Shown here piece by piece: positions 8,526-45,934 of a DNA stretch of 64,000 bases (positions are counted from its first letter, which is position 1; every line of letters begins with the position of its first letter). The translations under genes and the position numbers were made by a program. The DNA is from a virus, in the IMG/VR virus record IMGVR_UViG_3300045116_000451, positions 1-64,000 of that record. One strand, 5' to 3'. Below the pieces are notes generated by a model that was not told the DNA's origin, searched no databases, and worked only from the letters and a program-made list of their open reading frames with translations.

Positions 8526-8756
8526 TCAGTCCCCGCACCAGTTGAGTTCGTCCCATGGCGCCGACGGAATCACCCGACTGTGATCTTGAGCGCCTCCGGC
8601 GAACACGTACTGGAGCAAGTTCAACGCTCTGCTTCTCGAAATCGTTTTTTGCTCGAGCAGGCGCAAGATCGTCTCGACCGGACCCTGGGACGCGAAGGCA
8701 GGCCCGCGCCACCAGTTCGGCGACCCGATCTCGTCCGTGATGAATCTTGGGTTCAT
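8526..8756 (-). CDS. Hypothetical protein (76 aa)
   Basis: MNPRFITDE start coupled to recT stop; GGAGG upstream. Confidence 0.55.
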   Translation of the reverse strand: MNPRFITDEIGSPNWWRGPAFASQGPVETILRLLEQKTISRSRALNLLQYVFAGGAQDHSRVIPSAPWDELNWCGD

Positions 8757-9802: not shown

Positions 9803-10839
9803 TCGTCATCGTTCGAGGCGTTCACGAGTTTGACCCTGAGCGCCCTGGTTACCTTCCTGTGACTTTCGATCGTTTCGGCGTCGAGCTTCACGCCGTACGT
9901 TTGCTGAATCCTCTGGACGAGCACTTCCCAGTCGGGTCGTCCGCGATGGCAACGCCAAGTCACTTTTCCCCAGGGTCCCTCGATGCCCTCGGCGCTTCGC
10001 ACGATCTCCTTGAGCCGCTGCGCGGCGAGTTCCTTCTGCCGCTTCGCCCGTTGCTCTTCGCGCGAGGCGCGCACGTAGTCGATCGCGATCTGCTCGGCCT
10101 CGGCCGGCGCGATGGCCATCTCGCGATCGGTCGAAGGGTACAGCTTGCGCAAGTACTTCAAGTAACCCTCGGACCCATCCGCGGCAGGAGGAATCTGCGT
10201 CACGACGTGATCTCGCCAGAACTTGTAAGCGGCATCACGCAAAAGCCCGGCGTACTCCTCGTCGTAATCGATGCGGAAGCTGCGGAACCTCGTGCCGTAC
10301 ACGAGGGCGGCGACGTCGGCGCGCTTGTAGCCCGTGACGAGCATCTGCCACTGCACCTGGCAGAAGACGTAGGTAGGAACCCGGTCGCAGTCGTCCGCGT
10401 CGTCGTCTTCGTCCAGGTTCCAGTGCCTCGCGACCCTAGAGCCGACGAGCTTGCACTCCAAGAGGTGACTCGCCGCGCCGCTGAGCGCCGCACGACGAGG
10501 GTCCATGGCCACCGGCGGGCCTACGATCACGAACCTGTCCGGGGTTGCGAGCGCCCACTGTGCGTCGGGCTCCCTGCACCGCCACGTCTCGTTGGGCTCG
10601 TACAGACGCCAACCCGACCTGTTCGGAGCGTCTTCCATGAGGTAGCGCTGCGCTACGGCCGCTTCGACGAGCGACCCCATCATGGCTTCAGGCGACGGCG
10701 GCGAGAGGGCTTCGGCTGGCTCGCATTTGTCGCGCCACACGTCGATGGGGCGGTGCCACGGGTTCTCGCCAACGATCGCTGAAATGTCGGTCGCGGTGAT
10801 GCCCGTCCTTCGCATCTGAAGCTGCTCTTCACTCAGCAT
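9799..10839 (-). CDS. YqaJ-like viral recombinase exonuclease
   Basis: RRTGITATDISAIVGENPW, ATPDR, LLECK, QVQWQMLVTG. Confidence 0.9.
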   Translation of the reverse strand: MLSEEQLQMRRTGITATDISAIVGENPWHRPIDVWRDKCEPAEALSPPSPEAMMGSLVEAAVAQRYLMEDAPNRSGWRLYEPNETWRCREPDAQWALATPDRFVIVGPPVAMDPRRAALSGAASHLLECKLVGSRVARHWNLDEDDDADDCDRVPTYVFCQVQWQMLVTGYKRADVAALVYGTRFRSFRIDYDEEYAGLLRDAAYKFWRDHVVTQIPPAADGSEGYLKYLRKLYPSTDREMAIAPAEAEQIAIDYVRASREEQRAKRQKELAAQRLKEIVRSAEGIEGPWGKVTWRCHRGRPDWEVLVQRIQQTYGVKLDAETIESHRKVTRALRVKLVNASNDDE

Positions 10840-10859
10840 TGCCCGAGCCTCGAACGGAC

Positions 10860-10929
10860 AGCATACGCACACGCAAGCGGATGTCAAGGCACTTTTCGTT
10901 CTTGACTTGTGCGTGTGCATGCGTAAGCT
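10860..10929. promoter_or_regulatory. Back-to-back divergent promoters with matching spacer/operator sequences
   Basis: Minus: TTGACA(10887-10882)-16-TATGCT. Plus: TTGACT(10902)-16-TAAGCT. Both spacers contain TGCGTGTGC. Confidence 0.6.
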
Positions 10930-23517: not shown

Positions 23518-23949
23518 ATGGCTACTATCCTCACCCATCTGGCGGACCCCCGGAGCGCGACACCGGGTCCGTGCGCTATTTGCGGTTCCGACGCGACGTC
23601 CTGGCGCCGCACCGGCCTGGCCGCGGGCGGGCTCGTGCGCGCGGCGCGCGCTTGCGAGGCGCACGAGCACGACGTGGTCAGCGCGTTGGCCGCGCTCACC
23701 ATGGACGATTGCGTCTCGTTCGTGCCGCGCGCGAGGCGGCTCGCGCGCGCCGATGCCGCCGAGCGTCGCGCGGAGAGGCTGTGCGCGCGAGCTGGCGGGT
23801 GGCGGCGGATGTCCGCGTCGCTCCGTGGCGCATCGTCGCACACGCACACGTGTGCGCTCGTCGGGGGCGCATGCGCGCGCGAGGCCGCCGCGCTCGATGC
23901 CTATGCCGCCGCGCTCCGGGCGTCGATCGGGACGGGGGGTGAGTCATGA
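23518..23949 (+). CDS. Hypothetical protein, possible Zn finger
   Basis: CAIC..CEAH; AGGAG RBS. Confidence 0.55.
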   Translation: MATILTHLADPRSATPGPCAICGSDATSWRRTGLAAGGLVRAARACEAHEHDVVSALAALTMDDCVSFVPRARRLARADAAERRAERLCARAGGWRRMSASLRGASSHTHTCALVGGACAREAAALDAYAAALRASIGTGGES

Positions 23950-25433
23950 CCAGCACCTACACGCTCGCGGGCATCCGCGCTGTGCCGGTGACGATTGGCG
24001 TTACCATGACCGAGCGATCCGGGGTCTCGATCATGGGCATGACCGACGTCGACGCGCGCGAGACGCGCGTGCGCGTGCGCGCTTCCCTGGCGCGCCTCGG
24101 TGTGGACGTGGCCAGCCTCTCGGTCACAGTCATCGCCGATCCGCCCGTCACGTCGGACGCGGCGGCGCTCGATCTGCCGATCGCGTGCGCCGTGCTGGAG
24201 GCGCTCGGCGCCGTGCCGCCCGAGGCGCTGCGCGGCACCGTCATGCTCGGCGGGCTGTCGCTCACCGGCGCGGTGCGACCGATCCGGGGGCTCCTGCCTC
24301 GGCTCATCGGGGCGCGCGAGGCCGGGATGCGGCGGGCCATCGTGCCGGCGGGCAACGCGCGCGAGGCGGGCGCGGTCTCGGGGATCGAAGTGTTCGTCGC
24401 CGAGCACCTGGAGCAGGTGCGCGATCACGTGCGCGGCAAGGCTCTGCTTTCGACCGCGGCGGCGCGGGCCTACGAGGCGAGCGACGAGGCGGCGTTCGAC
24501 CTGGGCGACGTCAAGGGCCAGCACGCCGCGCGGCGAGCGCTCGAAATCGCCGCCGCGGGCGGCCATCACCTTCTCATGCTCGGCCCGCCGGGCGGCAAGA
24601 CGATGCTCGCCCGGCGAATGCCGTCCATTCTGCCGCCCCTCACCTTCGACGAGGCGATCGAGGCGAGCGTGGTTCACTCGGTCGATGGCATCTTGCCTGC
24701 CGACTCGGGCATCGTGCGGTCGCGTCCCTTCCGCGCCCCCCACTACACCGTGAGCGAAGCCGGGCTCGTGGGCGGCGGCGATCCGCCCCGGGCCGGCGAG
24801 GTCTCGCTCGCGCACCACGGCGTGCTGTTCCTCGACGATCTGGCGGAGTTCCGTCGGAGCACGCTCGAACAGTTGCGCGCTCCGCTCCACGACGGGTCCG
24901 TGACCGTCGGCCCGAACCGCGCCCGTGCGACGTTCCCGGCCCGCCCGATGCTCGTGGCGGCCATGAACCCCTGCCCGTGCGGCTACGCGGGAGAGGGGAG
25001 CGGGCGGTGCCGGTGTACCGTCGACGCGGTCACCCGATACCGCGACCGCGCGCTCGGTGCGCTCGGCGATCTGATCGACGCCCGAGTGCGGATCGAGCCG
25101 ACGAGCCCGAGCGCTCTAGCGGCCGCACCCCCGGGCGAGCCGTCGAGCGCTGTGCGAGAGCGCGTGGTGGCCGCGCGCGCGCGGCAGGCAGCCCGGCAGG
25201 ACGGGCAGCTCAACGGGCGCCTCGACCAGGCCGATTTCGAGCGCGTTGCGCCGCTCGACGAGCCCTCGACGCGCATGCTCGCTATCGCGGCGGAGGCCCG
25301 CGCGCTCGACGCCAGCGCCATTGTGCGCGTCCGTCGTGTCGCGCGCACGATCGCGGACCTAGACGGTGTCGAGCACGTGCGCGCCGAGCACGTGGCCGAG
25401 TCGCTCGCCCTCGCGGCCCCGGTTCTCCTGTAG
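23946..25433 (+). CDS. comM: ComM/YifB-family AAA+ protein with degenerate catalytic motifs
   Basis: DVKGQ..RRALEIAAAGGH, RPFRAPH, GEVSLAHHGVLFLD, AAMNPCPCG, RVARTIADL. Confidence 0.9.
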   Translation: MTSTYTLAGIRAVPVTIGVTMTERSGVSIMGMTDVDARETRVRVRASLARLGVDVASLSVTVIADPPVTSDAAALDLPIACAVLEALGAVPPEALRGTVMLGGLSLTGAVRPIRGLLPRLIGAREAGMRRAIVPAGNAREAGAVSGIEVFVAEHLEQVRDHVRGKALLSTAAARAYEASDEAAFDLGDVKGQHAARRALEIAAAGGHHLLMLGPPGGKTMLARRMPSILPPLTFDEAIEASVVHSVDGILPADSGIVRSRPFRAPHYTVSEAGLVGGGDPPRAGEVSLAHHGVLFLDDLAEFRRSTLEQLRAPLHDGSVTVGPNRARATFPARPMLVAAMNPCPCGYAGEGSGRCRCTVDAVTRYRDRALGALGDLIDARVRIEPTSPSALAAAPPGEPSSAVRERVVAARARQAARQDGQLNGRLDQADFERVAPLDEPSTRMLAIAAEARALDASAIVRVRRVARTIADLDGVEHVRAEHVAESLALAAPVLL

Positions 25434-25450: not shown

Positions 25451-25480
25451 TTGCGTTGTGTGCTAGCACGTGCTAGCACA
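25451..25480 (+). promoter_or_regulatory. Promoter/operator copy D with 22-bp perfect palindrome
   Basis: C-run CAAAATTCGC, TTGCGT; TGTGCTAGCACGTGCTAGCACA (25459-25480). Confidence 0.7.
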
Positions 25481-27096
25481 TGTCAGACGCGCACCCGCTC
25501 GCGCGTTTTCGATCGCGCATGCGTAGCTCCTGCCCCCGTCCTAGGTCCGACCGCGCCACGTGGCAACACGTGCTGGCGGTCGAATACGACCTGCCGGCCC
25601 ACGCGGGCGCGGCGAGAATCTGGGCGCGCGTGACGCGGCCGCCGCGCCCGATTCTCACGCCGGGCGCGTACGTCGCCGCCTGCCGGCGCCTTGCGGGCGA
25701 CCGCGTCTACACAGACGTTGTCCTCGACGGCGATCCGCCGTGGCGCCCGCTCGTCGGCTACTCACGCGTTGACGGGCGCCTCGTCGCGGCCGGGTTCGGG
25801 CTCTGCCCGCCACGCCGGTGGGTCGAGTCCGAGCTGGACCGGTTCCTGCGGTTCTGGCGCCGCACGGCGGGCCGGCCCGGGCTGGTTGGTTCCTCGTACA
25901 ATCCGCATTCGCCCGAGGTCACCTACCAGGCGTTGCGCGCCGGCGTGCCCGCGTGGATCGTGGCCTCAGGCGTCCGGCTCACAGGCCGTGACGGGCGCGT
26001 GCACCGAGTGACGCGCTCTAGGCGCCGGCGCCTGCAGGCCATGGCGAGGGCCATGCGCCGCCGCAGTTTCCACCGCTACGGCGTGACGTGGGGCCACGAC
26101 GCGCTACGGGCGATCGGGCGTCTGTCGCCCGAACTACAGGCCGTGGCGGTTTTGTCGGTGCGTCGCGAGCAGGCCGCCCGCAAATTCGCCGCGTGGACCG
26201 TCCGCGCGCGGGACCTGGACTGGCCACGGATAGCCGCGGTCCAGGCCGAGATCCTGGCGAACCCCACTGGCCCCCTCCGGGCCGCGTGGTCTGCCGTCGC
26301 CGACGCAAAAACGCCGCTGGGCGTCCGCGCAACGGCGATGCTCCCCGCGTGGTGCCGGGCCGAGGACGGGACCGTTAAGACGCGCCAGGCGATCGAATGG
26401 TTTGCGCCGGGCTCGCGCTGCGTCTCGCTCGCGCGCGCGGTGCGTCTCGCGCGCGGCGAAACGCCCGCCGAGATCGCAGGCGGGCTGCTCAGCGAGGCGG
26501 ACGCCGCGCGCTGGATCGCCTCGGAGCTGGATCCGGCGGAATGGCTCGCGGCCGAGATCGCGTCGGGCCTGCCGTCGGTCCGGGATCGCGAGCGAGTTCT
26601 GGACGAGCGTGGCCCGCGGCTCCTAGCGTGGCTGCGGGCAGTCGACCTGGCCGGCGGGTTGCCGGCGCTGTCGGCCGAACGCGTCCTGTCGAACCCGCAG
26701 GGCGAGCGGTTCCGGGTGCGGTACCTGGAGCAGCTCAGCACGTTCGAGCAGGCGCTGTACGTAGATTCGACGGAGCGCAACCCGGACGTGCTATTTGCCC
26801 GCGCGTTTGACTGGGGTTCGTGGCAGGCGCGCAACCTGCGTCCAGTCGAATCGCCCGCGCAGGAGGTGATGGAGCTGCGGGCGCGCGTGCAAATAGCGCG
26901 CGAGGCAGTAGCACAGCTGCTCGACGATTTGCGCGCCGGTCGCGCGCGCAGTCGAGACCTCGACGCCGCGCGCAGGGCGCTCGACGCGCTCGACAATGCC
27001 GCGCCGGGTGACGTGGTGCTCGTGCGCGTCACGCCCCCGGCTCGCCCCGGCTCCGAACCCCCCCGCAGAAAAATCGTCCTGCGGGAGACAGATTGA
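25480..27096 (+). CDS. Hypothetical protein sharing a domain with the PcfJ protein N-terminus (start uncertain)
   Basis: WFAPGSRCVSLARAVRLARGETPAEIA matches WLAPEYPRASLEQARQLRSGLAPAAIA. Confidence 0.6.
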   Translation: MSDAHPLARFRSRMRSSCPRPRSDRATWQHVLAVEYDLPAHAGAARIWARVTRPPRPILTPGAYVAACRRLAGDRVYTDVVLDGDPPWRPLVGYSRVDGRLVAAGFGLCPPRRWVESELDRFLRFWRRTAGRPGLVGSSYNPHSPEVTYQALRAGVPAWIVASGVRLTGRDGRVHRVTRSRRRRLQAMARAMRRRSFHRYGVTWGHDALRAIGRLSPELQAVAVLSVRREQAARKFAAWTVRARDLDWPRIAAVQAEILANPTGPLRAAWSAVADAKTPLGVRATAMLPAWCRAEDGTVKTRQAIEWFAPGSRCVSLARAVRLARGETPAEIAGGLLSEADAARWIASELDPAEWLAAEIASGLPSVRDRERVLDERGPRLLAWLRAVDLAGGLPALSAERVLSNPQGERFRVRYLEQLSTFEQALYVDSTERNPDVLFARAFDWGSWQARNLRPVESPAQEVMELRARVQIAREAVAQLLDDLRAGRARSRDLDAARRALDALDNAAPGDVVLVRVTPPARPGSEPPRRKIVLRETD

Positions 27097-27150: not shown

Positions 27151-27171
27151 GCTGAACACCAGGAGGTGACC

Positions 27172-28743
27172 ATGTCCGAGAAACAGACCACCCGCCCCGC
27201 CATGGCGTCGGCGCTCATCCGCGCGAGGATTCGCGCGGTGCCGCTCGTGGCCGTGCGCACGGCGGACCAACCCGCCGCTGTGCGGGTGCTCACGGCGGCG
27301 CTGCTCGAAAGCGCCGTCGAGCGCGACGAGCCCCCGCCCGGGATCGTCGTGCATGACCCGGTGCGAGGGTTCGCGCCGGGCACCACCGCCGGAGCGGCCG
27401 GCCAGGCCGCGCAGGAGGCGATTGCGGCCATGCTCGGGGACCTCGACCCGAGCATGAGCGCCGACCCCGTTACCGCGCTCACAATGGCGGCCGCCGCGCC
27501 GCCGGACACCGTCGTGATCATGATGGCCGGTGACCGCGCGCTCGGCGAGCCGCGCCCGGCGCTGGCGGCCCTCCTGCTCCGGGACCGCTACGCCGCCGGG
27601 CGGTCCACGCTCGTTGTGCTCGGCGCGTCCTGGAGCCCCGCGGCCGAGCTTGGCTCGGACGTGTACGTGCTGGACGACGAGCCGCCAGAGACGCCCGAGC
27701 GGCGCTCGACGGTCGAGCGCCTCGTGGCCGATGCGAAACTCAGAGCGGACACGGCAACGATCGAGTCCGCATGCGGGTTCACTCGGGGGCTGAGCCGGTT
27801 CGCGGTCGAGCAGACCGTGAGCCTCGCCCTCAACGGAAAGGGGCTGCGCTTGGACGTGCTCGCGCGCGTCTGGCGCGAGGCGATCGACCGCACGCCCGGG
27901 CTCCGAGTGGAGTCCACGGGCTCCGGGGACGCCGAGTCCGTCGCCGGGCTCGCCGCGCTCCAGGCGCACGCCGCCCGCGTCACGAGCGGCCGCGCCCGCC
28001 CCGATGTTGTCGTGTGGATCGATGAGATCGAGAAGGCGCTGGCCGGCTCGTCCGGCGCCGTCGCCGACAGTTCCGGCGCCTCGCAAGCCGTGCTCGGATC
28101 CATCCTGACTGCGATGGAGCAGTCCGGGGCCGAGGGCATGATCCTCGTCGGCCCGCCCGGGACCGGGAAAAGCCTGTCCGCGCGCGTGATGGGCGCGGCC
28201 GCGGGCGTGCCCGTGATCCAGCTCGACCCCGGGCGAATCAAAGGGTCGCTCGTCGGGCAGACCGAGGCGCAAGCGGCGGCCGCCATGGCCGCGCTACGGG
28301 CCATGGGCGGCCGCTGCTACTGGGTCGCAACGAGCAACGGCCTGGCGACCGTGCCGCCCGAGCTGCTCCGCCGGTTCACGGACGGCGTGTGGTTCGTGGA
28401 CCTGCCCGCGCCCGACGAACGCGCCGCGTTGTGGCGCTTGTACCTGGACCGGTGGGATCTCCAGGACGAGATGCCCGCGTCGAGCGCCGACGTCGGCTAC
28501 AGCGGCGCCGACGTGCGCAACGTGTGCCGCACGGCGTGGCGGGACGGCGTCTCCGTCGCCGCCGTGATGGCGAGTTACGTGCCCGCCTCGAACGCGGCGC
28601 GCGATCGGATCGAGGCCCTGCGGCGCGGTGCCGTGGGCGCCTATCGATCGGCGTCCTACACGGGCGCCTACAGGATGCCGGTGGCGGAGCCGGCGAGTCA
28701 GCCGGCGACGGGCCGGAAACTGCAGCTAGGACGGGAGGGCTGA
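27172..28743 (+). CDS. Ycf46-like AAA ATPase with Walker B placed before Walker A
   Basis: VVWIDEIEKAL precedes GPPGTGKS; VATSN, PPELLRRF and FVDLP follow. Confidence 0.85.
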   Translation: MSEKQTTRPAMASALIRARIRAVPLVAVRTADQPAAVRVLTAALLESAVERDEPPPGIVVHDPVRGFAPGTTAGAAGQAAQEAIAAMLGDLDPSMSADPVTALTMAAAAPPDTVVIMMAGDRALGEPRPALAALLLRDRYAAGRSTLVVLGASWSPAAELGSDVYVLDDEPPETPERRSTVERLVADAKLRADTATIESACGFTRGLSRFAVEQTVSLALNGKGLRLDVLARVWREAIDRTPGLRVESTGSGDAESVAGLAALQAHAARVTSGRARPDVVVWIDEIEKALAGSSGAVADSSGASQAVLGSILTAMEQSGAEGMILVGPPGTGKSLSARVMGAAAGVPVIQLDPGRIKGSLVGQTEAQAAAAMAALRAMGGRCYWVATSNGLATVPPELLRRFTDGVWFVDLPAPDERAALWRLYLDRWDLQDEMPASSADVGYSGADVRNVCRTAWRDGVSVAAVMASYVPASNAARDRIEALRRGAVGAYRSASYTGAYRMPVAEPASQPATGRKLQLGREG

Positions 28744-28746
28744 GAC

Positions 28747-29094
28747 ATGCCGTGCAGCACTCGCTACGAAACCACGTCCATGGACGTGGCGAACATGAAC
28801 AGAACGCGCCTCGCGTCCGCGCTCGCGGACGCGGGGTGGAGCGTGAGCCACGACACCCACGCGGGGACGCTCACCGCGTGGTCCAAGGGCGGCGCGCGCC
28901 TGATGATCGACTCGCAGGGGGCACGGGTCGAAACGTCGGCCTACACCGACACCCCCGCCGCCGTCCAGACCGCGATTGCGCGCGCGTACGCGCTGCGCAC
29001 CGTGGCCGAGGTGGCCAAGCGCTTCGGGTTGCGGCAGACCGCCGCGCCCCAGACAACGAACAACGGCGCGACCCGCGTGCGCCTCACGAGGTGA
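28747..29094 (+). CDS. DUF1257-like small protein
   Basis: Size and position after Ycf46-like AAA; LASALADAGW..RAYALRTV..AKRFG. Confidence 0.5.
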   Translation: MPCSTRYETTSMDVANMNRTRLASALADAGWSVSHDTHAGTLTAWSKGGARLMIDSQGARVETSAYTDTPAAVQTAIARAYALRTVAEVAKRFGLRQTAAPQTTNNGATRVRLTR

Positions 29095-29096
29095 CT

Positions 29097-29363
29097 ATGT
29101 GCCAGTCCGTGAAGGGGCCCCTGGCCCCGAATACCCTCGACGTCGTGATTCTGCCAGACGGCAGGATCCGAATCGAAACCGGCTCGTTCGCCGGTGCCTC
29201 GCACACCAGCGCAAACGCGTTTCTCGCCGCGCTGGTGAAAGAGCTGGGCGTGTCGATCGAGCGGCGCGAGCCGCTCGCGCACACCCACGCTCACGAGCAC
29301 GCTCACGAGCACGAGCACCAACACGCGGGCACGGGCTCGCACGGAGGGCACGACCATGGCTGA
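29097..29363 (+). CDS. DUF2997-like small protein with His-rich tail
   Basis: VVILPDGRIRIETGSFAG; HTHAHEHAHEHEHQH. Confidence 0.55.
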   Translation: MCQSVKGPLAPNTLDVVILPDGRIRIETGSFAGASHTSANAFLAALVKELGVSIERREPLAHTHAHEHAHEHEHQHAGTGSHGGHDHG

Positions 29364-30924
29364 CACCGGAACGCTCGGACTGCCCGTTTCGTCGCAGCCC
29401 CCGACCGAGCCCGAGGCGCGCGCCGCGGGAGCGCTCGCCGCGAACGGAGCCCGATTCGACTCGGCCGAACGCCTGGAAATCTCGCGCGTGGTCCTGGCCG
29501 CGTTCGACGCGCCCGCGGCAACGCGCGGGGCCATCGTGGGCGCGCTCGACGTCGCGGCCGACGCGGCCACCTCGATCCGAGTCGGCGGGGTCTACTCGTC
29601 GGCGGCCGCGTTCGTGCGTGACCTGCCGCGCACCACGCGCCCGGTCGCGCGGGCTCTGCTCGTCGCCTGGACCGAGGGGGCGACGGTGCAGGCGCCCGCG
29701 CCCGCGCCCGAGCCCGAGGACGACGGGTTCGAGCCGGAGCCGGCACCGGAGCCGGTGACCGACGCGCCGCCCTCGGTCGAGGCTCCTGCTCCCGCCGCTA
29801 CGGTGCCGGAGCCCGTCGCGGCTGCGCCCGCGCCCGAGCCCGTGGTTGCCCCGCCCCCTCCCCCGCCCCCGGCTCCCGAACCGGTGATGGAGGCCGCTCC
29901 GGCCCCCACGCCGGTGCCCCCGGAACCCGTTGTGGAGCCCGAGCCCGTTCCGCTCCCGGCTCCCGAGCCCGAGCCGGACCTGTCGGATCTGCCGGCCGAC
30001 GCTCTGCGGGCCGTCGAGCAGGTCGAGGATCCGCTGGCGAAATGCCGGTGGCTCGTGCTGTCGTTCGACCGGCTCGGCCGATCGCGACAGGTGCGCGGCT
30101 ACGACGTGGACGTCACGGCGAACGGCGAGGACGTGGACGCGAGGCAGCTCGCCATGTCCAAAAAAATCCTTGACGTTAAACAGTCTAGGGCAATCGGATC
30201 GGCGGACTGCGGCCTGCGCGCGCAGCTGCGCGACGAGTACGCGTTGACCGCGGTGGGGGGCATGTACGCGATTCCCGTGCGCCTCATGTCCGCCGTCCAC
30301 GATCGCCTGACCGAGCATCGCGAACGACGCGGGAGGCTAGTTGCCGCGTTCCGCGAGGCCTACGCGGCGTCCATAGAGGCCGACCGCACGCGGCTCGGCG
30401 CGCTGTTCCGCGAGGCGGACTACCCCGCCGTTGAGGACGCGTGCAATGCGTTCGCCATGGCGTGGACGTGGCGGAGGCTCGACGGCGCGAGCGATGAGGA
30501 CCTCACCGACGCCATGGCCGCCGAGCAGCGGGAGCAGCTCGCGGCCGACTACGCCCGCCAGCGAGCCGAGGTCGTGGCCGGGCTACGGGCCATGTTTGCG
30601 AAGCTCGCGGAGGAACTGCGCGAGCGGCTCACGGCCGAGCGCGAGGCAGGCAAGGGGGCCATTTTCCGCGACGAGCGGGTCGAGAAACTGCGGCGTTTCG
30701 TCGGGCTGTTCGCGGAGCGCGACGTGGGCGATCCAGCCCTCGCGGACGAGGTCGCGCGCGTTGGGCGAGCGCTCGACGGCGTGGACGCGGACGACCTGCG
30801 CCGGGACGACTCGCTCCGGCGGACCACGGCCGAGACGCTCGCGAGCGTGACGGCCGCGGTAGCCACGTTCGAGACGGGAGCGGCGCCCCGGCGCAGGATG
30901 CGCCTTCGCCCCGAGGACGAGTGA
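29356..30924 (+). CDS. Two-domain protein with P/E/A linker; C-terminus DUF3150-like
   Basis: Long PEP linker; SKKIL..GMYAIP..LFREADYP..IFRD helical domain. Confidence 0.6.
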   Translation: MADTGTLGLPVSSQPPTEPEARAAGALAANGARFDSAERLEISRVVLAAFDAPAATRGAIVGALDVAADAATSIRVGGVYSSAAAFVRDLPRTTRPVARALLVAWTEGATVQAPAPAPEPEDDGFEPEPAPEPVTDAPPSVEAPAPAATVPEPVAAAPAPEPVVAPPPPPPPAPEPVMEAAPAPTPVPPEPVVEPEPVPLPAPEPEPDLSDLPADALRAVEQVEDPLAKCRWLVLSFDRLGRSRQVRGYDVDVTANGEDVDARQLAMSKKILDVKQSRAIGSADCGLRAQLRDEYALTAVGGMYAIPVRLMSAVHDRLTEHRERRGRLVAAFREAYAASIEADRTRLGALFREADYPAVEDACNAFAMAWTWRRLDGASDEDLTDAMAAEQREQLAADYARQRAEVVAGLRAMFAKLAEELRERLTAEREAGKGAIFRDERVEKLRRFVGLFAERDVGDPALADEVARVGRALDGVDADDLRRDDSLRRTTAETLASVTAAVATFETGAAPRRRMRLRPEDE

Positions 30925-37283: not shown

Positions 37284-38030
37284 ATGCAGGGTGACGGTCC
37301 CGCCATTCGACGCCACCTCGACGCACGCCTGGTCAGCTACGCGCTGTCCGTGGTCGAGGGCAAGATGGACCAGGAGCTGGCCGGCACGCTCCAGACGTGC
37401 GCTGCGGCCTGTCTTCAAGCCGCGAGCGGCATCCTGGCGCTCGTGATGGCCTGCCGGGCAACGGCGCGCGCGCCGGCCCTGGTGCGCCTGCTCGACGCCA
37501 AGCAGCGCGAACGCTTGACCACGCTTCTCGAAAGCGTCGCCGAGGTGGTCGAGGACTCGTGGAAAGGTCAGCTGCAGGAAGTCATGGAGGTGGTGGTCGT
37601 CATGGCGTGCTCGACCACGGACGATCCCGAAGTCGAAGCGAACCTGCGCAGCTGGGCTCACGGGCTGCGCCTGGACACGCGCGCGCTCGCAGTACACGAG
37701 GACGAGGACACGATCGAGGACGTCGTCGAACCCGACACGCCCATGCACCGCAGGGAGCACAAGCGCCGATCGCGCTCGTCGCGCTCGGCCTACCAGAAGG
37801 AACGCTGCGACAACCTGGTCGCACGCGCCGTTTCGATGGGCGTTCACACGACGCGGCCGCTTCTCGCGAACGGACAGGTCGTGATCATCGGCCAGGCGCC
37901 TCGGGGACAGGCGAGGCTCGCGAAGCTGCGGGGCTCCATGGCCGAAGCCGAGGTGCTCTGCAAGCAGATCAACGAGCAGATCCGCCAGCTCGGCGTCGGC
38001 GAGCCGAAGCTATCTCAGGCCGTGGGATGA
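37284..38030 (+). CDS. Hypothetical protein
   Basis: Helical N-terminal part; ATGA-coupled to the recombinase. Confidence 0.6.
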   Translation: MQGDGPAIRRHLDARLVSYALSVVEGKMDQELAGTLQTCAAACLQAASGILALVMACRATARAPALVRLLDAKQRERLTTLLESVAEVVEDSWKGQLQEVMEVVVVMACSTTDDPEVEANLRSWAHGLRLDTRALAVHEDEDTIEDVVEPDTPMHRREHKRRSRSSRSAYQKERCDNLVARAVSMGVHTTRPLLANGQVVIIGQAPRGQARLAKLRGSMAEAEVLCKQINEQIRQLGVGEPKLSQAVG

Positions 38031-41000
38031 TCGAGCCCGAGGACACGCTCACGGCGGTGCCGAACCGAGCCGACGCGCTCGGCGCGTTCGGCGAGCTTGC
38101 GAACGGCCAGGCGGGCTACAAGGAATCGCGATACGCGCAGGCGATCCGCTCGCTCGTCGAGCGGCTCATGATGAGGGCGACTTCGATCCAGCAAGTGCGC
38201 GGCAAGCGCCGGCTGCGAGAGCGCCCGCAAGACCGCTCGAACAGCGTCAAGACGTACGTCAAGGCGCTGGAGCTGTTTTCGTACTGGTCGGTCACGATCT
38301 ACGGCCGTGAGCTGGACCCGGCCGAGGTCACGACGGCCGTCGTCGGCGATTACGTGTCGTGGCTCCGGGCGGACGCGACGCGTGCCATCGCGAACGCATC
38401 GCCCGAGCAGCAACAACGGCGCGAGGAATACGTCAAGACGCGTCTCGCAGTGCGGCGGCTCATGATCCGCGCATCCGGCACGGATGCGATCCAGGTGCAC
38501 GACGCTGCCCTCAGCGCGATCGAGACGTACGGACAGGCGAACATCCACCAAATCTACGAGGCGCTGCCTCCCAGGGTTCGAGACCGTTACGTGCTGCCGA
38601 AGCAAGATGCACGCGTGCCCCTGGACTACTCGCAGCTGCACCGCGTGCTCAACACCTTGCTCCGAGCGCACAGAGTGATCGAACGCAGCCCAAGCTCGCG
38701 CCAGATCCGCTCCCGGAAGGGCTACATCTGGTCGACCGAAGAGCGCGATCCGCTCATTTACCGCTACCTTCTGGCAAGGGTGACGCCGCTCAAAGAAACG
38801 AGCGTTTCGACGCACCTTTCGGCTCTGAGCGCTGTTTGGCGCGAAATGCTCAAGCGCACGGACCAGGGCCCCGCACCCCTGGTGTTCAACCCGTGGGCAG
38901 ACGCGCTCAGCCAGTCGTCGTGGAGGGTACGCGCGCAGAAGACGGCCGAACGATCACAGCTCGTGCCGAGCAAAGCGCTCACCAAGCCCATTGTGCGAGC
39001 GCTTTTTGGCGCCGCTTCGGGACCGGCGCTGGAGCAGCGGCGCGACAAGCTGGCGCTGGCGCTTCTCACCTGGCTCGGGCTTCGGGCCGAGGAAGTCGTC
39101 GGGGCGCTGCGGGCGGACCTGGGCACGCGCGAGGGCGCGATGGCGCTCACGGTCTACGGCAAGGGCAACAAGGCGCGCCTGGTGCCCGTCTTCGCGGAAA
39201 TCCGGCAGGCGTTTGAGCTGCTGAACGACACGCTTGGGTCGATGACCCGTGAGACGTTCGTCGGCGAGGACGGCCAGCGAAGGCCCACCTACAGCGCGCG
39301 TTACGCGATGGCGCTGCTCGAACCGGACGCGCCGCTCGTGCCTTCGCTCGTGCGCTGGGGCACGAACGTACGCACGGGCGATCCAGAAGCCGACGCACGC
39401 AACCCGCTGGACACCTCGGGTCTGCGGGCGCTCGTGTGCAAGCTCGGCGACCGAGCGAGGGTGCGCGTGGTCGCGACCGGTGAGATCCGGGCGCTCGACA
39501 CGTCCGAGCGGGCGCGTGTGCACCCGCACGCCTTCCGGCACTACGCCGCCACCGCGGCTTCCGAGGGGGGCGTGAGCATGGTCAAGATCAAGGGTCTGCT
39601 CGGCCACGAGTCGATCCGCACGACCGAAGGCTACGTAGAGGTGCCGGCCGAGACGAGCGTCGAGGTGTCGGTGGCGATCTACAGGGCGACGGAGGGGGGC
39701 GAGGCGATGACGGCCGATGAGCTTTCGTCGGCGAGGGTGCGGTCCTCGGCGATCGAGCAGCCGGAGATCGAAGGGGTCGTGGTGCAGCCGGCGAGGGTGG
39801 TTGGAACGGCGCCGGCGGTTTCTCCTTTGGCTGGCTCGGCGCGTGTGGATCCGGGCGAGAAGGTCGCAAGCCCTGGCTGGGCCTACGTGCCGGGATCGGA
39901 AAAGACGATCGCGTACATCCCGCGTGGGATGACCGCGGTCGCGTTCTCGCGGCATGTGCAGTCGCAGGCCCAAGGGGCGAGGGCACGGGCGGAGAAGGCT
40001 CGCGAGACGGGCGACGCCAAGACGTACGAGAGCGCGCTCGCGGAGTACGTCGTGTGGCGCTCGAAGTACCTTTACGTGACCATGCGACAGGGCGAAAAGA
40101 GCAAGCTCGCGTGGTGGACTGGACGGGCTGGACGATGGCAGGGGCTGGAGCGCGCGCCGATCATGGGACCTTCGCAGCTCGGGCCTGAGACCGATCGGGA
40201 TCGAATCGTCACGGACGGCTTGAAAGCGCTGTACGAAGCGTTCTGGGAGACGCGTGGGCCGACGAGCGCTTCGGCTCTTGCCGTGTGGGTCGGTGAGATG
40301 GTGGACACGGCTGCAGGCGTGTTTGCCAGGGCCATGGTCGAGAGGGGCGACAGCTGGGTGGCCTACGACGAGCCGGCGGCGCCGGTCGAGCCTGTGGTGC
40401 GCATGCACCGCTCCGAGGCGATTCTGGAATGGTTCGAGCGCTGGGGCTGGAGCTACCGCGTGACGGGCGAAAAGGGTTCCGAGCGAGGCGGCAACGTTGC
40501 CCTGGCCGAGTTGGAAAGCTTACCGGAGTGGTTCTGGCTGGAGGACCCTCTGCTCGCGCTGCCAGCTGCGGAGCGCCGGCAGCTTCGCTTGTGGATCGAG
40601 CAGCTGCAGGCGCTGCGCCCGTCGCCTGGGCGTCTTGCCGAGGCGGTCGAGCAGATGGTGGACATCATGCGGGCATACCGCAAGCTCGGCCGCGCCTACG
40701 AACAGCGTCTCGAGCGAGAAGGTCGAGAAGAGCTTTCGCCCGAGCTGAAGCTGATGGGCGATCGGCTGCGCGGGATGGAGGGCGCGTTCGCGCAGCAGGC
40801 GTTTAGGCTGTGGCCTACGTTGCGCGAGCCCCTGAGCGCGGCCGCGATCGTGATGGGTCCTGGCCTGCCCTTCAGGGATCGGCTCGCGAAGGCGCTGCGG
40901 GCCCAAGGGATCGACATGGGCAACGCTTCGCAGGCACGCCTGGATCCTGTGCTGCTGCCCGAGGATGCAAGAGCTGGCACGCACGTCTTCGATGCCGCGC

Positions 41001-42208
41001 GTCTTCGCTTCGACGCAAGGGACACGATCGTGCACACGGCTGCGGACAAGCGAGCATGGTTCGAGCAGTTCGGAACGGACTCCGAGTGCGTGGCGCGGCG
41101 GGCTGTGCGCGTTCTGTGGGAGCGTCGGCAGCGTCTTCTCCGATCGCAGGCGCACACGCTCGTGTCGCGACACCTCGACATGTGGCTGGCCTCGCTCATA
41201 CCGTGCCCGGCCGAGATCGAAGAGCGCATGAAGTCGAAGGGCTGGAAGCCGCCGGCTAGCGCCGAGGAAAGGCTCGAAACTTCGGCGGCGGCTTGGCGTG
41301 CGCTCATGGCGGCGATCCGCCGCAGCCTGGGACAGCCGGACCCGGAGGTGTCCCAGCAGGCCGAGCAGGGGGCCGTGGAGCTATTCGCGCCCGAGGTGCC
41401 CGAGGTGCAGGCGATCGTGGCCGAGGGCGCCGAGCAGCCCGTGGCCGTGAGCCCGGAGCGCTTCGAGGCAACGGGCGAGCTTCCCCAGGAAGCGACGGCG
41501 CCTGCCGCCGCAGCGGCGCCGGAGCCTGCTGTAGTACCGCAAGCGGCGGCGAGCGCGCTGCGCGCGTCCGCCCAGCGAGACGGCGACCTCATCGCGATCG
41601 ACGCGCGAGCGCTGTTCGATACGGCCTCCGGCAAGGTCACCTGGCTCGTGCTCACGGCAGGTGCGGCGGTGCTGGGCTGGCCCGCGGACCTGCTCCGCAA
41701 GTTCGGGGCGGGGGCCGGCAGAGTTGCGAAGGTGGCCCTGCTGGACGTCGGCGGCGCCCGCTTGATCTTTCGCTGGCCGGGCGACAAGGGAGGCTTCGTG
41801 CTGCCGGCGAAGGTGTCGGCTCCGCCCGAGGGCGAGACGGTCACCCTCGTGGACGTGACGCCTGCCGAGGAGCGAGCGACCCCGAACCCCCCATGGGCCG
41901 ACCCTAACCAGCAAGCGGCCCAGTGGCCCGGCTATCCAGGAGTGGACCCCGCTGACCAAGGCTCAGCGCTCATGGATTGCATCGCGTGGCCCGAGCAACG
42001 AGAAGCCGAGCCGACGCCCATCGACCGCTGGAGGCTCGCGTGCGCGATGCGCACCTACTCGATCTTGAAGCGCGCCGAGGCCGGAGCGCTCGGGGGACGG
42101 GTGCCGTCCGGCTGGAGCCGTTCTCCCCAGGCAGCCCTGCCGAACGCGGTGCCATCGGTGCTGCCGCACCCGATCGACGTCGCGATGGCCGCCGCTCGCT
42201 CGACCTAG
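38027..42208 (+). CDS. Giant tyrosine recombinase (1393 aa) with long C-terminal extension
   Basis: GLRAEE (R), GKGNK (K), HAFRH (HxxR), LLGH and TTEGY (Y) catalytic set. Confidence 0.85.
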   Translation: MIEPEDTLTAVPNRADALGAFGELANGQAGYKESRYAQAIRSLVERLMMRATSIQQVRGKRRLRERPQDRSNSVKTYVKALELFSYWSVTIYGRELDPAEVTTAVVGDYVSWLRADATRAIANASPEQQQRREEYVKTRLAVRRLMIRASGTDAIQVHDAALSAIETYGQANIHQIYEALPPRVRDRYVLPKQDARVPLDYSQLHRVLNTLLRAHRVIERSPSSRQIRSRKGYIWSTEERDPLIYRYLLARVTPLKETSVSTHLSALSAVWREMLKRTDQGPAPLVFNPWADALSQSSWRVRAQKTAERSQLVPSKALTKPIVRALFGAASGPALEQRRDKLALALLTWLGLRAEEVVGALRADLGTREGAMALTVYGKGNKARLVPVFAEIRQAFELLNDTLGSMTRETFVGEDGQRRPTYSARYAMALLEPDAPLVPSLVRWGTNVRTGDPEADARNPLDTSGLRALVCKLGDRARVRVVATGEIRALDTSERARVHPHAFRHYAATAASEGGVSMVKIKGLLGHESIRTTEGYVEVPAETSVEVSVAIYRATEGGEAMTADELSSARVRSSAIEQPEIEGVVVQPARVVGTAPAVSPLAGSARVDPGEKVASPGWAYVPGSEKTIAYIPRGMTAVAFSRHVQSQAQGARARAEKARETGDAKTYESALAEYVVWRSKYLYVTMRQGEKSKLAWWTGRAGRWQGLERAPIMGPSQLGPETDRDRIVTDGLKALYEAFWETRGPTSASALAVWVGEMVDTAAGVFARAMVERGDSWVAYDEPAAPVEPVVRMHRSEAILEWFERWGWSYRVTGEKGSERGGNVALAELESLPEWFWLEDPLLALPAAERRQLRLWIEQLQALRPSPGRLAEAVEQMVDIMRAYRKLGRAYEQRLEREGREELSPELKLMGDRLRGMEGAFAQQAFRLWPTLREPLSAAAIVMGPGLPFRDRLAKALRAQGIDMGNASQARLDPVLLPEDARAGTHVFDAARLRFDARDTIVHTAADKRAWFEQFGTDSECVARRAVRVLWERRQRLLRSQAHTLVSRHLDMWLASLIPCPAEIEERMKSKGWKPPASAEERLETSAAAWRALMAAIRRSLGQPDPEVSQQAEQGAVELFAPEVPEVQAIVAEGAEQPVAVSPERFEATGELPQEATAPAAAAAPEPAVVPQAAASALRASAQRDGDLIAIDARALFDTASGKVTWLVLTAGAAVLGWPADLLRKFGAGAGRVAKVALLDVGGARLIFRWPGDKGGFVLPAKVSAPPEGETVTLVDVTPAEERATPNPPWADPNQQAAQWPGYPGVDPADQGSALMDCIAWPEQREAEPTPIDRWRLACAMRTYSILKRAEAGALGGRVPSGWSRSPQAALPNAVPSVLPHPIDVAMAAARST

Positions 42209-43110: not shown

Positions 43111-43446
43111 TCACTGCGCGGGCGCGACGACGGCGGGCGCCGAGCCGGTCGCGCTCACAAGCTCGATCTTGCCGGCGATCCAGCAAGCCACGATGTTGTC
43201 CGGGTCGAGCGCGACGTCGATGCTCGTGCGGGGATCGGTCGGGTTGGCGTACGTGAGGATGGGTTGTCCGTTCTGGAGCCTGAGCTTGCCCTCGACGTGG
43301 TCGAGCGCGATCGGGGTGTTCGCGTATTGATCGGAGCCGCGCATTGCCATCGGCACGAAAGACCGCCCGGAGTAGCCGAGCAGAAACACGGCCTGCTTGA
43401 GTTGCACGAACACGATCTCGCCTTCCGCGAAGGACAAGTTGATCAT
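43111..43446 (-). CDS. Hypothetical beta-rich protein
   Basis: AGGAG RBS; ATGA coupling. Confidence 0.6.
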   Translation of the reverse strand: MINLSFAEGEIVFVQLKQAVFLLGYSGRSFVPMAMRGSDQYANTPIALDHVEGKLRLQNGQPILTYANPTDPRTSIDVALDPDNIVACWIAGKIELVSATGSAPAVVAPAQ

Positions 43447-44537
43447 TGGTATTTTCTCCTGATGTCGTCCATCCAAGGTTGGATCTGGCGTGACCAGACC
43501 CACGCATGTGATAGCGTTTGTGCTTGGGCCACGGCGTCGCTGGCGTTCTGTTGCGCGTCACGCCGAGCTTGCTCGAGCGATTCCTTGATTGCGTGCGGGC
43601 TCGAATGGGGGGCGGTGCCGCCCGCGTCATAGATGGCCGGACCTTGACCGTCGAACGGAACGGGCACGACGCCGGGGATGGGCGCACCGTCCCGCAGCGC
43701 CCACTGCCGATGCCCCCCGCACAAGGTAACGATGACCGGAACGCCGCAGCAAAGGGCTTCCAGCGGGCAGAGGCCGAACCCTTCCCCGCGCGAAGGCTGC
43801 ACCACGTAGTCGAAACACGAATAGACCCAGCGCATGCGCTCGGGAGCTGCGTTCAAGCGGCCCATGATCGAAACGTGGTCCACGTGTTCGTCGTACTCGT
43901 CTTCGAGGCGCGCGCGCGCCACGGCGAGTTGGGAGGCGGACACGACCACGGTCAAGTGAGCTTCGCGCCGATGGTCCCAGTCGGTGAACGCTCGGATGAG
44001 CGGCCAGGTGCCTTTTCTCTCCGTGCTCGACTCGGCCAGGTGAAGCAACGACAGCCCTGGCTTACGAAAGGCAGAAAACAGCTCGCTCGCTTCGAACTCG
44101 GCGCGCTCTTCTTTCGCGATAGGCGTCATGCACTCGGACACGCCGTGAGGCACTACGGTGACCGGCAAGATGAACTCGGGCGGTGCGCCATCCACGATGA
44201 CTTTCTTGGACCACTCGCTTGGCGTGAGCAGGCCCGTGCAAGAGCACATGACCGCATCGTAGATAGAAGGTGGTACCCAAGTTGAATTCGCCGCAAGCAT
44301 GAACAGGCGCTCTTCGTGCCCGAACATGGCCATGTACCCGATCTCGAAAGGCAGCCCGCACACGAGCCCGACCGGCGCACCGGCTCCATGGCTTCCGACC
44401 TCGACGTCACCGATTCTGTTTGCGTAGCTCACGGAACCGGCGAGCAGGTTTTCTCGGTCGAGCGCGCTTGCGATACCGTGCGTGACGACCTGAAACGAGC
44501 CCCAGCCGACGGTCGAGCCGTAGACGCGCACGATCAT
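43443..44537 (-). CDS. GT4 (GT-B) glycosyltransferase
   Basis: VVPHGV, RKG, PSRGEGFGLCPLEALCCGVPVI. Confidence 0.9.
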   Translation of the reverse strand: MIVRVYGSTVGWGSFQVVTHGIASALDRENLLAGSVSYANRIGDVEVGSHGAGAPVGLVCGLPFEIGYMAMFGHEERLFMLAANSTWVPPSIYDAVMCSCTGLLTPSEWSKKVIVDGAPPEFILPVTVVPHGVSECMTPIAKEERAEFEASELFSAFRKPGLSLLHLAESSTERKGTWPLIRAFTDWDHRREAHLTVVVSASQLAVARARLEDEYDEHVDHVSIMGRLNAAPERMRWVYSCFDYVVQPSRGEGFGLCPLEALCCGVPVIVTLCGGHRQWALRDGAPIPGVVPVPFDGQGPAIYDAGGTAPHSSPHAIKESLEQARRDAQQNASDAVAQAQTLSHAWVWSRQIQPWMDDIRRKYQ

Positions 44538-45934
44538 GGGCGCTCTCCGTCCACGTTGATTCCCGCGGTTGGTGTCGAAGACCGACTAGTGAGTCGATCG
44601 ACTTCACTGCGCATCTTGGCGCCGACGCGGTCGAGCGTGTAGGGGCTCGAATCGAACGCGTGCACGTAGTCGTCGCGTGACCTGAACGCGTAGACCAGGG
44701 CGACCTGAAGATGCGTCACACCGAAAGCCGACCAGACCGTGCCGACAGGCATCGCATACCAGCTCGGAATTTCGTAGCCCCATTCAGATTCGCCGATGCG
44801 AATGTCGCTCGGCGTGGCGTAATCGGAAGGGCCACCAAAGCCAGAGTAAATCAAGCGCAAGCCCATGACCTTCGCGTCGAACGCGGGCAAGTCGAATCCT
44901 TCGAAACGCCCGCTCGACACGTAGCAGTCGCACTCGGCGTACAAGCGTGCCAAGTCCGCGCGGTCGAAGCGCTGGTTCCAGAAGACGCGAATCTTCGCCA
45001 GGGCCTGCTCGCGCGTCCACAGGGAAGCCGAATAGCTAGTCAGGAAAGCTGCGTCGATGCTTTCGTAGGGGGTCGAGGGGTAGCCGGGGCTGCGCGCGAA
45101 TGGCATGCATTTGAGGACAAGCTCGACCGGGTCGTCCGGAGAAAACGCCGAAAGGAAAGCTTCGACAAGCTCGTGCTGCGCTTTGCGCGGTTCCCATTTG
45201 CCGACGTGAAGAAAGCGATACGGTCGAGGTGCGCTCGAACGAGGCGTCGTGCGCATTGGATCCCGAAACGCCATGGGATGCGGGATGATCGCGATCTTGG
45301 AGCGGTCGAGGCCGCATGCGACGAGACCTTCTGCGTTGTGCCGGCACGGCACCCAGACACCGCCGAGCCGTCCGAGAAGCTCTACGGTTTCGGAGCCGAG
45401 CGTTTGTGTCTCGAAAGCCGCAAAGAGCACCGTCGAGGCGCGCGCGGCCGAGCGTTCTTCTCGTGTGCCCTGCGCGAGCCAGGCATTGCGAGCGACGCGT
45501 TCGACGTTGGCAATGCTCGGCACGACGTGACGGATGACGAGCGCGGTCTTCCCGTGCCTCAGATCCGCAACGTGGCCGATCTCGTCTCGGACGCTCTGGG
45601 GCAATTCCGAGTAGGTCACGCGCTCGACGAGCCCGTCGTTCGAGTGCGTGTGGCTCTCGCTTTGCAGAAACACGGGCAGGCCCGTGCGGCGCAGAGCGCA
45701 GGCGTTGCGACGAACGGCTACGCATACGCCGTCGGCCTCTGTTTCGTAGGGCCCTCGATAGATGACGCCGACGGAGTACTGGGCACCGTGCCCAGGCGCG
45801 AAGACAGGACCTTCAGCTTCGAGTTCCTGCTCGGCTCGTGTGCGTTCTTCGGCCGCGTCCCGATCGGCTCGTTCTGCGAGCGCTTGCTGGTAGCGCTCGA
45901 GGTCCTCGGCGCAGACGTGGGGGTCGCCAGGCAC
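44534..45934 (-). CDS. GT4 (GT-B) glycosyltransferase
   Basis: VWVPCRHN, GKWEPRKA, SGRFEGFDLPAFDA. Confidence 0.88.
   Translation of the reverse strand: MPGDPHVCAEDLERYQQALAERADRDAAEERTRAEQELEAEGPVFAPGHGAQYSVGVIYRGPYETEADGVCVAVRRNACALRRTGLPVFLQSESHTHSNDGLVERVTYSELPQSVRDEIGHVADLRHGKTALVIRHVVPSIANVERVARNAWLAQGTREERSAARASTVLFAAFETQTLGSETVELLGRLGGVWVPCRHNAEGLVACGLDRSKIAIIPHPMAFRDPMRTTPRSSAPRPYRFLHVGKWEPRKAQHELVEAFLSAFSPDDPVELVLKCMPFARSPGYPSTPYESIDAAFLTSYSASLWTREQALAKIRVFWNQRFDRADLARLYAECDCYVSSGRFEGFDLPAFDAKVMGLRLIYSGFGGPSDYATPSDIRIGESEWGYEIPSWYAMPVGTVWSAFGVTHLQVALVYAFRSRDDYVHAFDSSPYTLDRVGAKMRSEVDRLTSRSSTPTAGINVDGERP

Follow-up and report, generated by a model that had tools for sequence, protein, structure and literature searches.

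Few protein folds have been studied as closely as those of the AAA+ and other P-loop ATPases, for which the order of Walker A, Walker B and sensor 1 along the chain serves as a defining feature in textbooks, profile models and annotation pipelines. Natural permutations that keep three-dimensional structure and activity occur in YlqF/YjeQ-type P-loop GTPases and in DNA methyltransferases. These permutations are circular, and the permuted GTPases retain the usual succession of Walker A (G1) before Walker B (G3). To our knowledge, no internal block has been relocated in related folds, where only circular permutations are known. Ycf46 is a cellular, not viral, AAA protein with the normal motif order. 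It has been described as an AAA ATPase that interacts with KaiC and has effects on circadian timing and on carbon concentration by an unclear mechanism (PMC13683863). Here we analyze a gene for a Ycf46-like, two-domain AAA+ protein carried by a 64,000-nucleotide stretch of viral DNA (positions 1 to 64,000 of IMG/VR virus record IMGVR_UViG_3300045116_000451; hereafter "the window"). In this protein, and throughout a viral family to which it belongs, the Walker B block stands ahead of the Walker A block.

The gene occupies positions 27166..28743 on the plus strand and encodes 525 residues from a GTG codon at 27166. An alternative ATG start at 27172 would give 523 residues, and is the start used by an identical database copy (P0002). 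Residue numbers below are counted from the GTG, and positions are those of the whole window. This open reading frame (ORF) is the sole frame at 27166-28743 with coding-type composition, and its G+C content at third codon positions (GC3) is 0.90. The parent record is 95.7 kb in length, with a CheckV completeness of 66%.

The classical AAA motif set is present in the ORF, each motif in a single copy: GxxGxGK[ST], hhhhDE, the sensor-1 Asn and a second region of homology with two arginines. However, the classical order of Walker A, Walker B and sensor 1 is not observed. The first motif of the putatively active domain is "VAGLAALQ" of helix alpha0 (residues 259-266). It is followed by Walker B, "VVVWIDEIEK" (residues 281-290, positions 28006-28035; the VVVWIDE portion is residues 281-287, positions 28006-28026). 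After an intervening "DSSGASQ..LTAMEQ" comes Walker A, "GPPGTGKS" (residues 329-336, positions 28150-28173), so that Walker B lies 48 residues ahead of Walker A. The remaining motifs are pore loop 1, "KGSLVGQTE" (residues 359-367, positions 28240-28266), sensor 1, "WVATSN" (N391, positions 28336-28338), and the arginine fingers R402/R403 in "PPELLRRF" (positions 28369-28374).

Comparisons with known AAA sequences find the same pieces out of order. In a phmmer search of Protein Data Bank (PDB) chains, query residues 275-327 match Cdc48 residues 576-628, which hold Walker B and alpha3 of the second AAA domain (D2), and query residues 320-367 match Cdc48 residues 519-566, which hold Walker A of D2. 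The two matches are reversed, and the pieces therefore stand in the opposite order to that of a normal AAA domain. The Pfam AAA profile (PF00004) scores 46.7 bits against a cut-off of 21.2 in two separate stretches, the best of which covers profile positions 1-55 only. These results agree with a first-pass annotation of the window, made from the letters alone. It listed VAGLAALQ, Walker B, Walker A, pore loop, sensor 1 and PPELLRRF in that order, with one copy of each catalytic residue, correctly placed the two Walker motifs at about 28009 and 28150, and predicted that alignment to hidden Markov models (HMMs) would give two out-of-order hits.

Curated NCBIfam AAA models match the window protein only as fragments of ~50 residues, at 24-33 bits, whereas with the same models a normal-order relative (P0096) is matched as a single stretch of ~210 residues (85 bits with the CDC48 model, residues 219-432). 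Automated pipelines therefore under-describe the permuted proteins. In PHROGs, the protein matches phrog_8638, a family of unassigned function, in four stretches. The anti-phage ATPase IetA/IteA was considered as an identity and rejected, since the score is 33 bits against a family cut-off of 510. The PADLOC IetA model gives 34 bits on a 50-residue fragment only.

The next-best relatives (P0096-P0121; named "SpoVK/Ycf46/Vps4 family AAA+-type ATPase" or "AAA family ATPase" in their sources) form a family in which the chain runs from the Walker A block through the Walker B block to sensor 1. Apart from this difference, they resemble the window protein in length (~495 residues), in a dead first domain (D1), in alpha0, in the lid and in the C-terminal tail, with ~26% identity, or ~28% over the full length in the hhalign comparison. 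Their block motifs are nearly identical (DEIEKAL.G...DSG.S..LG.LL.W/M..D). The normal-order family is also common in viral contigs, with at least 329 loci. In five related contigs (L118, L119, L120, L121 and L160), two ORFs of ~316 and ~141-174 residues, ~900 bases apart, stand in place of an undivided normal-order AAA gene. The split may be genuine, or it may result from an intron or from the insertion of a homing endonuclease.

Alignment of the two families by hhalign indicates what moved. Their profiles are collinear over residues 13-524 of the permuted family and 2-488 of the normal-order family (probability 100, E 4.4e-87), except that the ATPase core is not collinear and two reciprocal gaps of ~45 residues interrupt the alignment. 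The extra block lies between alpha0 and beta1 in the permuted family, and between alpha2 and beta4 in the normal-order family. A second hhalign hit pairs the two blocks with each other ("DEIEKALAG..DSSG.SQ..LG.LLT.MED" with "DEIEKALSG..DSGVS..LGTLLSWLNDH"). On this basis, and with block HMMs, the moved unit, termed block B, is delimited to residues 279-322 (positions 28000..28131). Its 44 residues comprise beta3 with Walker B, the pore-loop-2 region with DSSG, and alpha3. The block that it crossed, block A, is residues 323-382 (positions 28132..28311) and holds beta1, Walker A, alpha1, beta2, pore loop 1 and alpha2. Block C follows (residues 383-415, positions 28312..28410), with beta4 carrying sensor-1 N391, alpha4 carrying R402/R403, and beta5. 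The chain then continues into the small subdomain, a helical lid (residues 416-489, positions 28411..28632), and a conserved C-terminal tail. At the other end, alpha0 with its "GL..L" motif (residues 263-274, positions 27952..27987) retains its normal place ahead of the core, according to both AlphaFold2 and hhalign. The new junctions are bridged by linkers with a median length of 3 residues.

When the two blocks are exchanged back in silico, each of the 85 sequences so treated gains in best-domain score against the normal-order HMM, by a median of 182 bits. For the window protein (P0001), four fragments (best 83.5 bits) become one domain of 232.8 bits. Hence hhalign, the swap-back scores and, as described below, predicted structure and coevolution agree with the earlier proposal that two internal beta-alpha blocks were exchanged in a non-circular permutation. 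The event is best described as the relocation of one block, beta3-alpha3, from after alpha2 to ahead of beta1. A circular permutation would have joined the old termini and created new ones inside the domain, but alpha0 is still first and the lid still last.

The AlphaFold2 model, made with an 85-row alignment, has a predicted local distance difference test score (pLDDT) of 94.7 and a predicted template modelling score (pTM) of 0.88. In this model, D1 (residues 12-241, positions 27199..27888) is a degenerate AAA-like alpha/beta domain with a four-helix lid, from which the nucleotide motifs, P-loop and Walker B included, are absent. HMMs for blocks C and A give weak echoes within it. The whole model aligns with D1-D2 of p97/Cdc48 (Z 17.7, 394 residues, 4.1 Å). 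With the motifs lost from D1, and with this alignment, the protein is a two-domain AAA protein in which D1 is dead and D2 presumably active. The D2 core is predicted to have exactly five strands (residues 281-285, 323-328, 350-353, 384-390 and 408-410). D2 aligns with Vps4, spastin and p97-D2 at Z 15-16 over 199-214 residues and 2.4-3.4 Å, and these lengths are what a sequential aligner keeps of a ~260-residue domain when it skips one 45-residue block.

Coevolution within D2 was analyzed by mean-field direct coupling analysis (DCA) of 304 permuted sequences (effective number, Meff, 258) over residues 240-500, with 32,640 pairs ranked. Strands that are neighbours in the normal sheet order 5-1-4-3-2 are coupled strongly: best ranks are 25, 27 and 85 for beta3-beta4; 93, 110 and 126 for beta3-beta2; 10 and 113 for beta1-beta5; and 78 for beta1-beta4. 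For non-neighbours, the best ranks are 401 (beta3-beta5), 426 (beta1-beta2), 527 (beta2-beta5), 645 (beta3-beta1) and 1527 (beta2-beta4). Normal packing also fits the coupling of beta3 to alpha1 (residues 284-339, rank 3), that of the start of beta3 to the end of alpha2 (residues 281-381, rank 6) and several alpha3-alpha2 pairs among the top couplings. These data support a sheet that keeps the order 5-1-4-3-2, in which the strand that comes first in the chain would fill the beta3 slot, between beta4 and beta2. Whether structure prediction preserves the sheet order was a question raised by the first-pass annotation, and the five predicted strands and the coevolving order both speak for it.

The arrangement is not peculiar to the window. 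Because simple regular expressions missed many divergent sequences, block order was called with HMMs for blocks B, A and C. In the 94 closest clusters (P0002-P0095) from a set of 5.8 billion proteins, reaching down to 30% identity over the full length, Walker B lies ~46 residues ahead of Walker A in every case. When the 85-row profile was compared with 1.84 billion representatives of clusters at 50% identity, the best 150 hits all had E<1e-169, and all of these except intein carriers were matched in one collinear stretch. In all, 4,595 representatives were hit at E<=1e-30. Among IMG/VR viral contigs, 115 encode relatives, and the order B-A-C is found in 76 of 76 complete viral genes. Overall, about 237 of the 263 collected proteins were called B-A-C by block HMMs, and a second A or B block was found in none of the 263. 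Likewise, intermediates of the form A-B-A-B or B-A-B-C were found in none of these proteins and at none of 240 loci. One candidate intermediate flagged by regular expression (L073) proved to be a false alarm. Family members of 650-900 residues were considered as forms with duplicated blocks and rejected, as they carry inteins.

In a collection with one prokaryote genome per species (185,579 genomes), B-A-C accounts for only 6 of the best 80 loci, each of them on a contig of a metagenome-assembled genome (MAG), and the other 72 that were classified have the normal order. One Armatimonadota MAG from Lac Pavin has three contigs (L163-L165), each with a permuted AAA gene 34-35% identical to that of the window, which suggests that several related viruses were binned together with this MAG. 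Among GenBank phages there is one hit, gp103 of the cultured Tunturiibacter phage Tunturi_3. It is annotated "ATPase" and is also B-A-C (B 281-320, A 324-381, C 386-431). Thus, the same order recurs in homologues, as the earlier annotation proposed should be checked. It had also proposed confirmation across 27950-28330. Positions 27777-28345, both junctions among them, recur with 0 differences in a contig of 569 bases assembled from another lake-water sample, and no joints or indels were reported.

We constructed an unrooted tree from 141 viral sequences (76 B-A-C and 65 A-B-C) with 445 columns, leaving out the moved block. All 76 B-A-C sequences fall on one side, and all 65 A-B-C sequences on the other side, of a single branch with support of 100. 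With so clean a split at one branch, one change of order suffices. The direction of the change, from normal to permuted, would follow from the order seen in the rest of the AAA+ superfamily.

The residues expected at an ATP site are retained across the 304 permuted sequences. K335, E287, N391 and G332 are found in 304 of 304, R403 in 303 and R402 in 290, while position 286 is D in 290 and E in 14. The permuted ATP site would thus be built from the usual residues, K335, D286/E287, N391 and R402/R403, and the domain is probably active as an ATPase, judging from its sequence. The permuted members of 650-900 residues have intein-like insertions of 130-400 residues, each with "HN" as its last residues and Cys or Ser next in the chain. 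The insertions lie in the P-loop (P0253, P0230 and P0226), in sensor 1 at "AT|CN" (P0133, P0231 and P0262) or in the lid (P0088). Inteins favour essential conserved sites, and we read the placement at the P-loop and sensor 1, given this preference, as a further sign that these sites matter.

We consider it very probable that the protein is a classical-clade Ycf46-type AAA+ protein of an uncultured lake-water virus, with a dead first domain and an active second domain, whose Walker B block was relocated in an ancestor with the fold kept. The other explanations that we weighed differ in how the unusual order might have arisen or what it might conceal. The window belongs to a metagenome-derived viral record that is incomplete by CheckV, and a misjoin or chimera could in principle have put the Walker B block upstream of Walker A. 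Yet 76 independent viral loci show the same order, as do a cultured phage genome and, at 50% identity, more than 150 clusters, and the contig from the different sample spans the region unchanged, which makes such an artefact vanishingly improbable. It could also be that the DE motif belongs to a degenerate N-terminal AAA domain, and that a cryptic Walker B of D2 lies downstream of its Walker A, a possibility that the first-pass annotation had named as one that would overturn its proposal. A degenerate D1 does exist, and the alignment with p97 D1-D2 and the weak block echoes inside D1 are in keeping with tandem domains. However, D1 has five strands and a lid of its own (residues 27-241), and the DE motif comes after both, and after alpha0 of D2. 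Moreover, alpha2 ends at residue 381 and the sensor-1 strand starts at residue 384, and the ~3 residues between them therefore leave no room for a second Walker B strand. The DE block also aligns with the Walker B block of the sister family's active domain, and coevolves with beta4, beta2, alpha1 and alpha2 of D2. A tandem-domain origin of the order is thus highly improbable.

A domain-swapped ring, in which block B enters the sheet of a neighbouring subunit and only the oligomer has complete active sites, calls for somewhat more caution, since coevolution does not separate contacts within a chain from those between chains, and a block that has come to lie first in its domain is the sort of element that could swap. 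Against a swap, the linker from alpha3 to beta1 has a median of only 3 residues, AlphaFold2 predicts a compact monomer with pLDDT ~97 over the block, and the rewiring needs only crossovers that are one strand longer within the chain. We regard it as very unlikely. Slightly less so, but still quite unlikely, is that the permuted proteins fold as AAA+ domains and serve as scaffolds that hydrolyze no ATP. Hydrolysis by these proteins is predicted from their residues, and D1 of the same protein is exactly such a dead domain. D1 also shows what loss looks like, however: its motifs are gone, whereas in D2 the residues K335, E287 and N391 are invariant, and R403 nearly so, down to ~27% identity, and inteins target the P-loop and sensor 1.

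Several points weigh against our reading that a relocated block retains the normal fold and the work of an active motor. A strong beta4-beta5 coupling (residues 385-406, positions 28318-28320 and 28381-28383; rank 22 of 32,640) joins strands that are not neighbours in the proposed sheet, although it may represent a contact across the start of beta1. The blindness of DCA to intra-chain versus inter-chain contacts bears on the sheet as a whole, and the sheet order was derived from DSSP assignments, alignment lengths and coevolution, not from direct inspection of coordinates. The retained fold thus comes from prediction and coevolution, and ATPase activity is likewise something we infer. A three-copy complex prediction of residues 245-525 scored 0.29 against a mark of 0.42, and says nothing either way on ring formation. 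Pore loop 1 has Leu-Val-Gly and lacks an aromatic residue, as it does in the normal-order sister family (consensus GSLVGQTE), and polypeptide threading is therefore an assumption. Finally, the function that we propose below for the module of which the gene is part is a best guess.

The AAA gene is followed by three genes on the same strand, nearly without spacers. The first (28747..29094) encodes 115 residues and is DUF1257-like by predicted structure only: an Atlas structure search matches it, at a template modelling (TM) score of 0.72, to a cluster with DUF1257 in 97% of its members; this is a lead with no sequence-level match, and Pfam gave no match. The second (29097..29363) encodes 88 residues with a His-rich tail and has a weak match to Pfam DUF2997 (E 0.021; 15.1 bits, below the cut-off of 24.1). 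Its protein cluster (cluster 19) occurs beside 12 other permuted AAA genes. The third (29356..30924) encodes 522 residues, of which the first ~200 are Pro/Ala-rich and the C-terminal ~320 resemble a DUF3150-type partner. AlphaFold2 models it with pLDDT 86.5, and the best match among viral structures is a "DUF3150 domain-containing protein" (TM 0.72-0.79). A relative of this protein matches Pfam DUF3150 with E 1.6e-4 and 21.6 bits, below the cut-off of 24.9. A fold search of the PDB with the DUF3150 partner gave generic helical-bundle matches only (Z <=9.8, below the meaningful level for helical proteins). The family libraries Pfam, PHROGs, NCBIfam and PADLOC gave no match above cut-off for these neighbours of the AAA gene.

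A gene of the DUF3150 type (cluster 1) adjoins the AAA gene at 70 of 80 permuted loci and 42 of 80 normal-order loci, as well as in the window. Because they share this neighbour, the two forms of AAA protein seem able to stand in for each other within one module. In cyanobacteria, genes for DUF1257 (Ycf35) and DUF2997 adjoin each other (PMC4284462). The module of AAA, DUF1257, DUF2997 and DUF3150 proteins is widespread in phages, and in other viral contigs it lies among replication and recombination genes, including those for DnaB-like and SNF2 helicases and a PD-(D/E)XK exonuclease. Neighbours in the window include a ComM/ChlI-like ATPase, an SNF2 helicase, RecT/YqaJ and a very large integrase-domain protein. 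One possibility, which we put forward tentatively and at somewhat less than even odds, is that the protein forms rings and remodels other proteins as an ATPase, acting on its partners or together with them early in infection.

Other genes of the window were noted in passing. Two genes upstream of the AAA gene, at 23946-25433 on the plus strand, is a full-length ComM/YifB-type ATPase (Pfam ChlI, Mg_chelatase and Mg_chelatase_C). Directly upstream of the AAA gene, at 25480-27096 on the plus strand, is a gene for a 538-residue Arg-rich protein. Pfam, PHROGs, NCBIfam and PADLOC gave no match to it, and none of the 80 viral loci with permuted AAA genes has a relative. A RecT and YqaJ-exonuclease recombination pair lies on the minus strand at 8756-10920 and has relatives in 3-4 of these 80 loci. 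The 1603-residue ORF at 37397-42208 on the plus strand has a Phage_integrase tyrosine-recombinase domain at residues 533-749 and no family match elsewhere. Two adjacent group-1 glycosyltransferases are encoded on the minus strand at 43443-45934, one of which matches Pfam "GT4-conflict" (family 4, conflict systems).

In the account that we favour, the unit of beta3 (Walker B) and alpha3 shifted, in an ancestor of a large viral lineage, from between alpha2 and beta4 to directly before beta1, which gives the chain alpha0, beta3, alpha3, beta1 (P-loop), alpha1, beta2, alpha2, beta4, alpha4, beta5 and lid. The three-dimensional fold, with the sheet 5-1-4-3-2, would be unchanged. The new links from alpha3 to beta1 and from alpha2 to beta4 would each reach one strand further than the old ones and in the same direction; judging from known AAA+ topology, such links would therefore lie on the same face of the sheet, with all crossovers right-handed. 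The product would presumably be an active, ring-forming and substrate-threading ATPase that does the same job as the normal-order sister family, with DUF3150, DUF2997-like and DUF1257-like proteins as putative partners, in what is probably the early or replication region of the virus.

We found no description of such rewiring in searches on permuted AAA and P-loop proteins, DUF3150 and Ycf46 modules, of a literature that does not take in most subscription journals. The family as a whole is a natural example of an internal strand-helix unit that changed place, with the catalytic site and, by prediction, the fold kept, in one event that a large radiation followed. Permuted and normal-order sisters that share partners would also provide a matched pair for studying folding order, co-translational folding and the tolerance of the ATPase core for rewiring. 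If a large and ancient viral AAA+ lineage does work with a non-circularly permuted core, then chain order in the ASCE (additional strand, catalytic E)/AAA+ fold would be no constraint on folding or catalysis. A bolder claim, which we consider unlikely, is that the rewiring alters the motor. Block B, which carries pore loop 2, now leaves the ribosome first and might change the coupling between hydrolysis and pore loops, or it might be exchanged between subunits, so that active sites would exist only in the ring.

Among known systems, Ycf46 of cyanobacteria and plastids belongs to the same broad AAA subfamily, as judged only by the source names of the normal-order relatives. The best structural matches over both domains are the type II AAA proteins p97, Cdc48, NVL and Drg1 (Z 15-17.7, ~395 residues). 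Like these proteins, the window protein has in its active domain a classical-clade pore loop 1, the sensor-1 Asn and two arginine fingers. However, its D1 has lost all nucleotide motifs, it has no N-domain, the order of its D2 is rewired, and identity is 14-18%. Type II proteins have two nucleotide-binding AAA domains, whereas D1 of the window protein has neither a P-loop nor a Walker B. The comparison with permuted proteins is equally instructive. YlqF/YjeQ GTPases and permuted DNA methyltransferases (the latter mentioned in PMC7824862 and PMC10853773) have acquired new N and C termini, whereas the domain described here has kept its ends and relocated a block within them.

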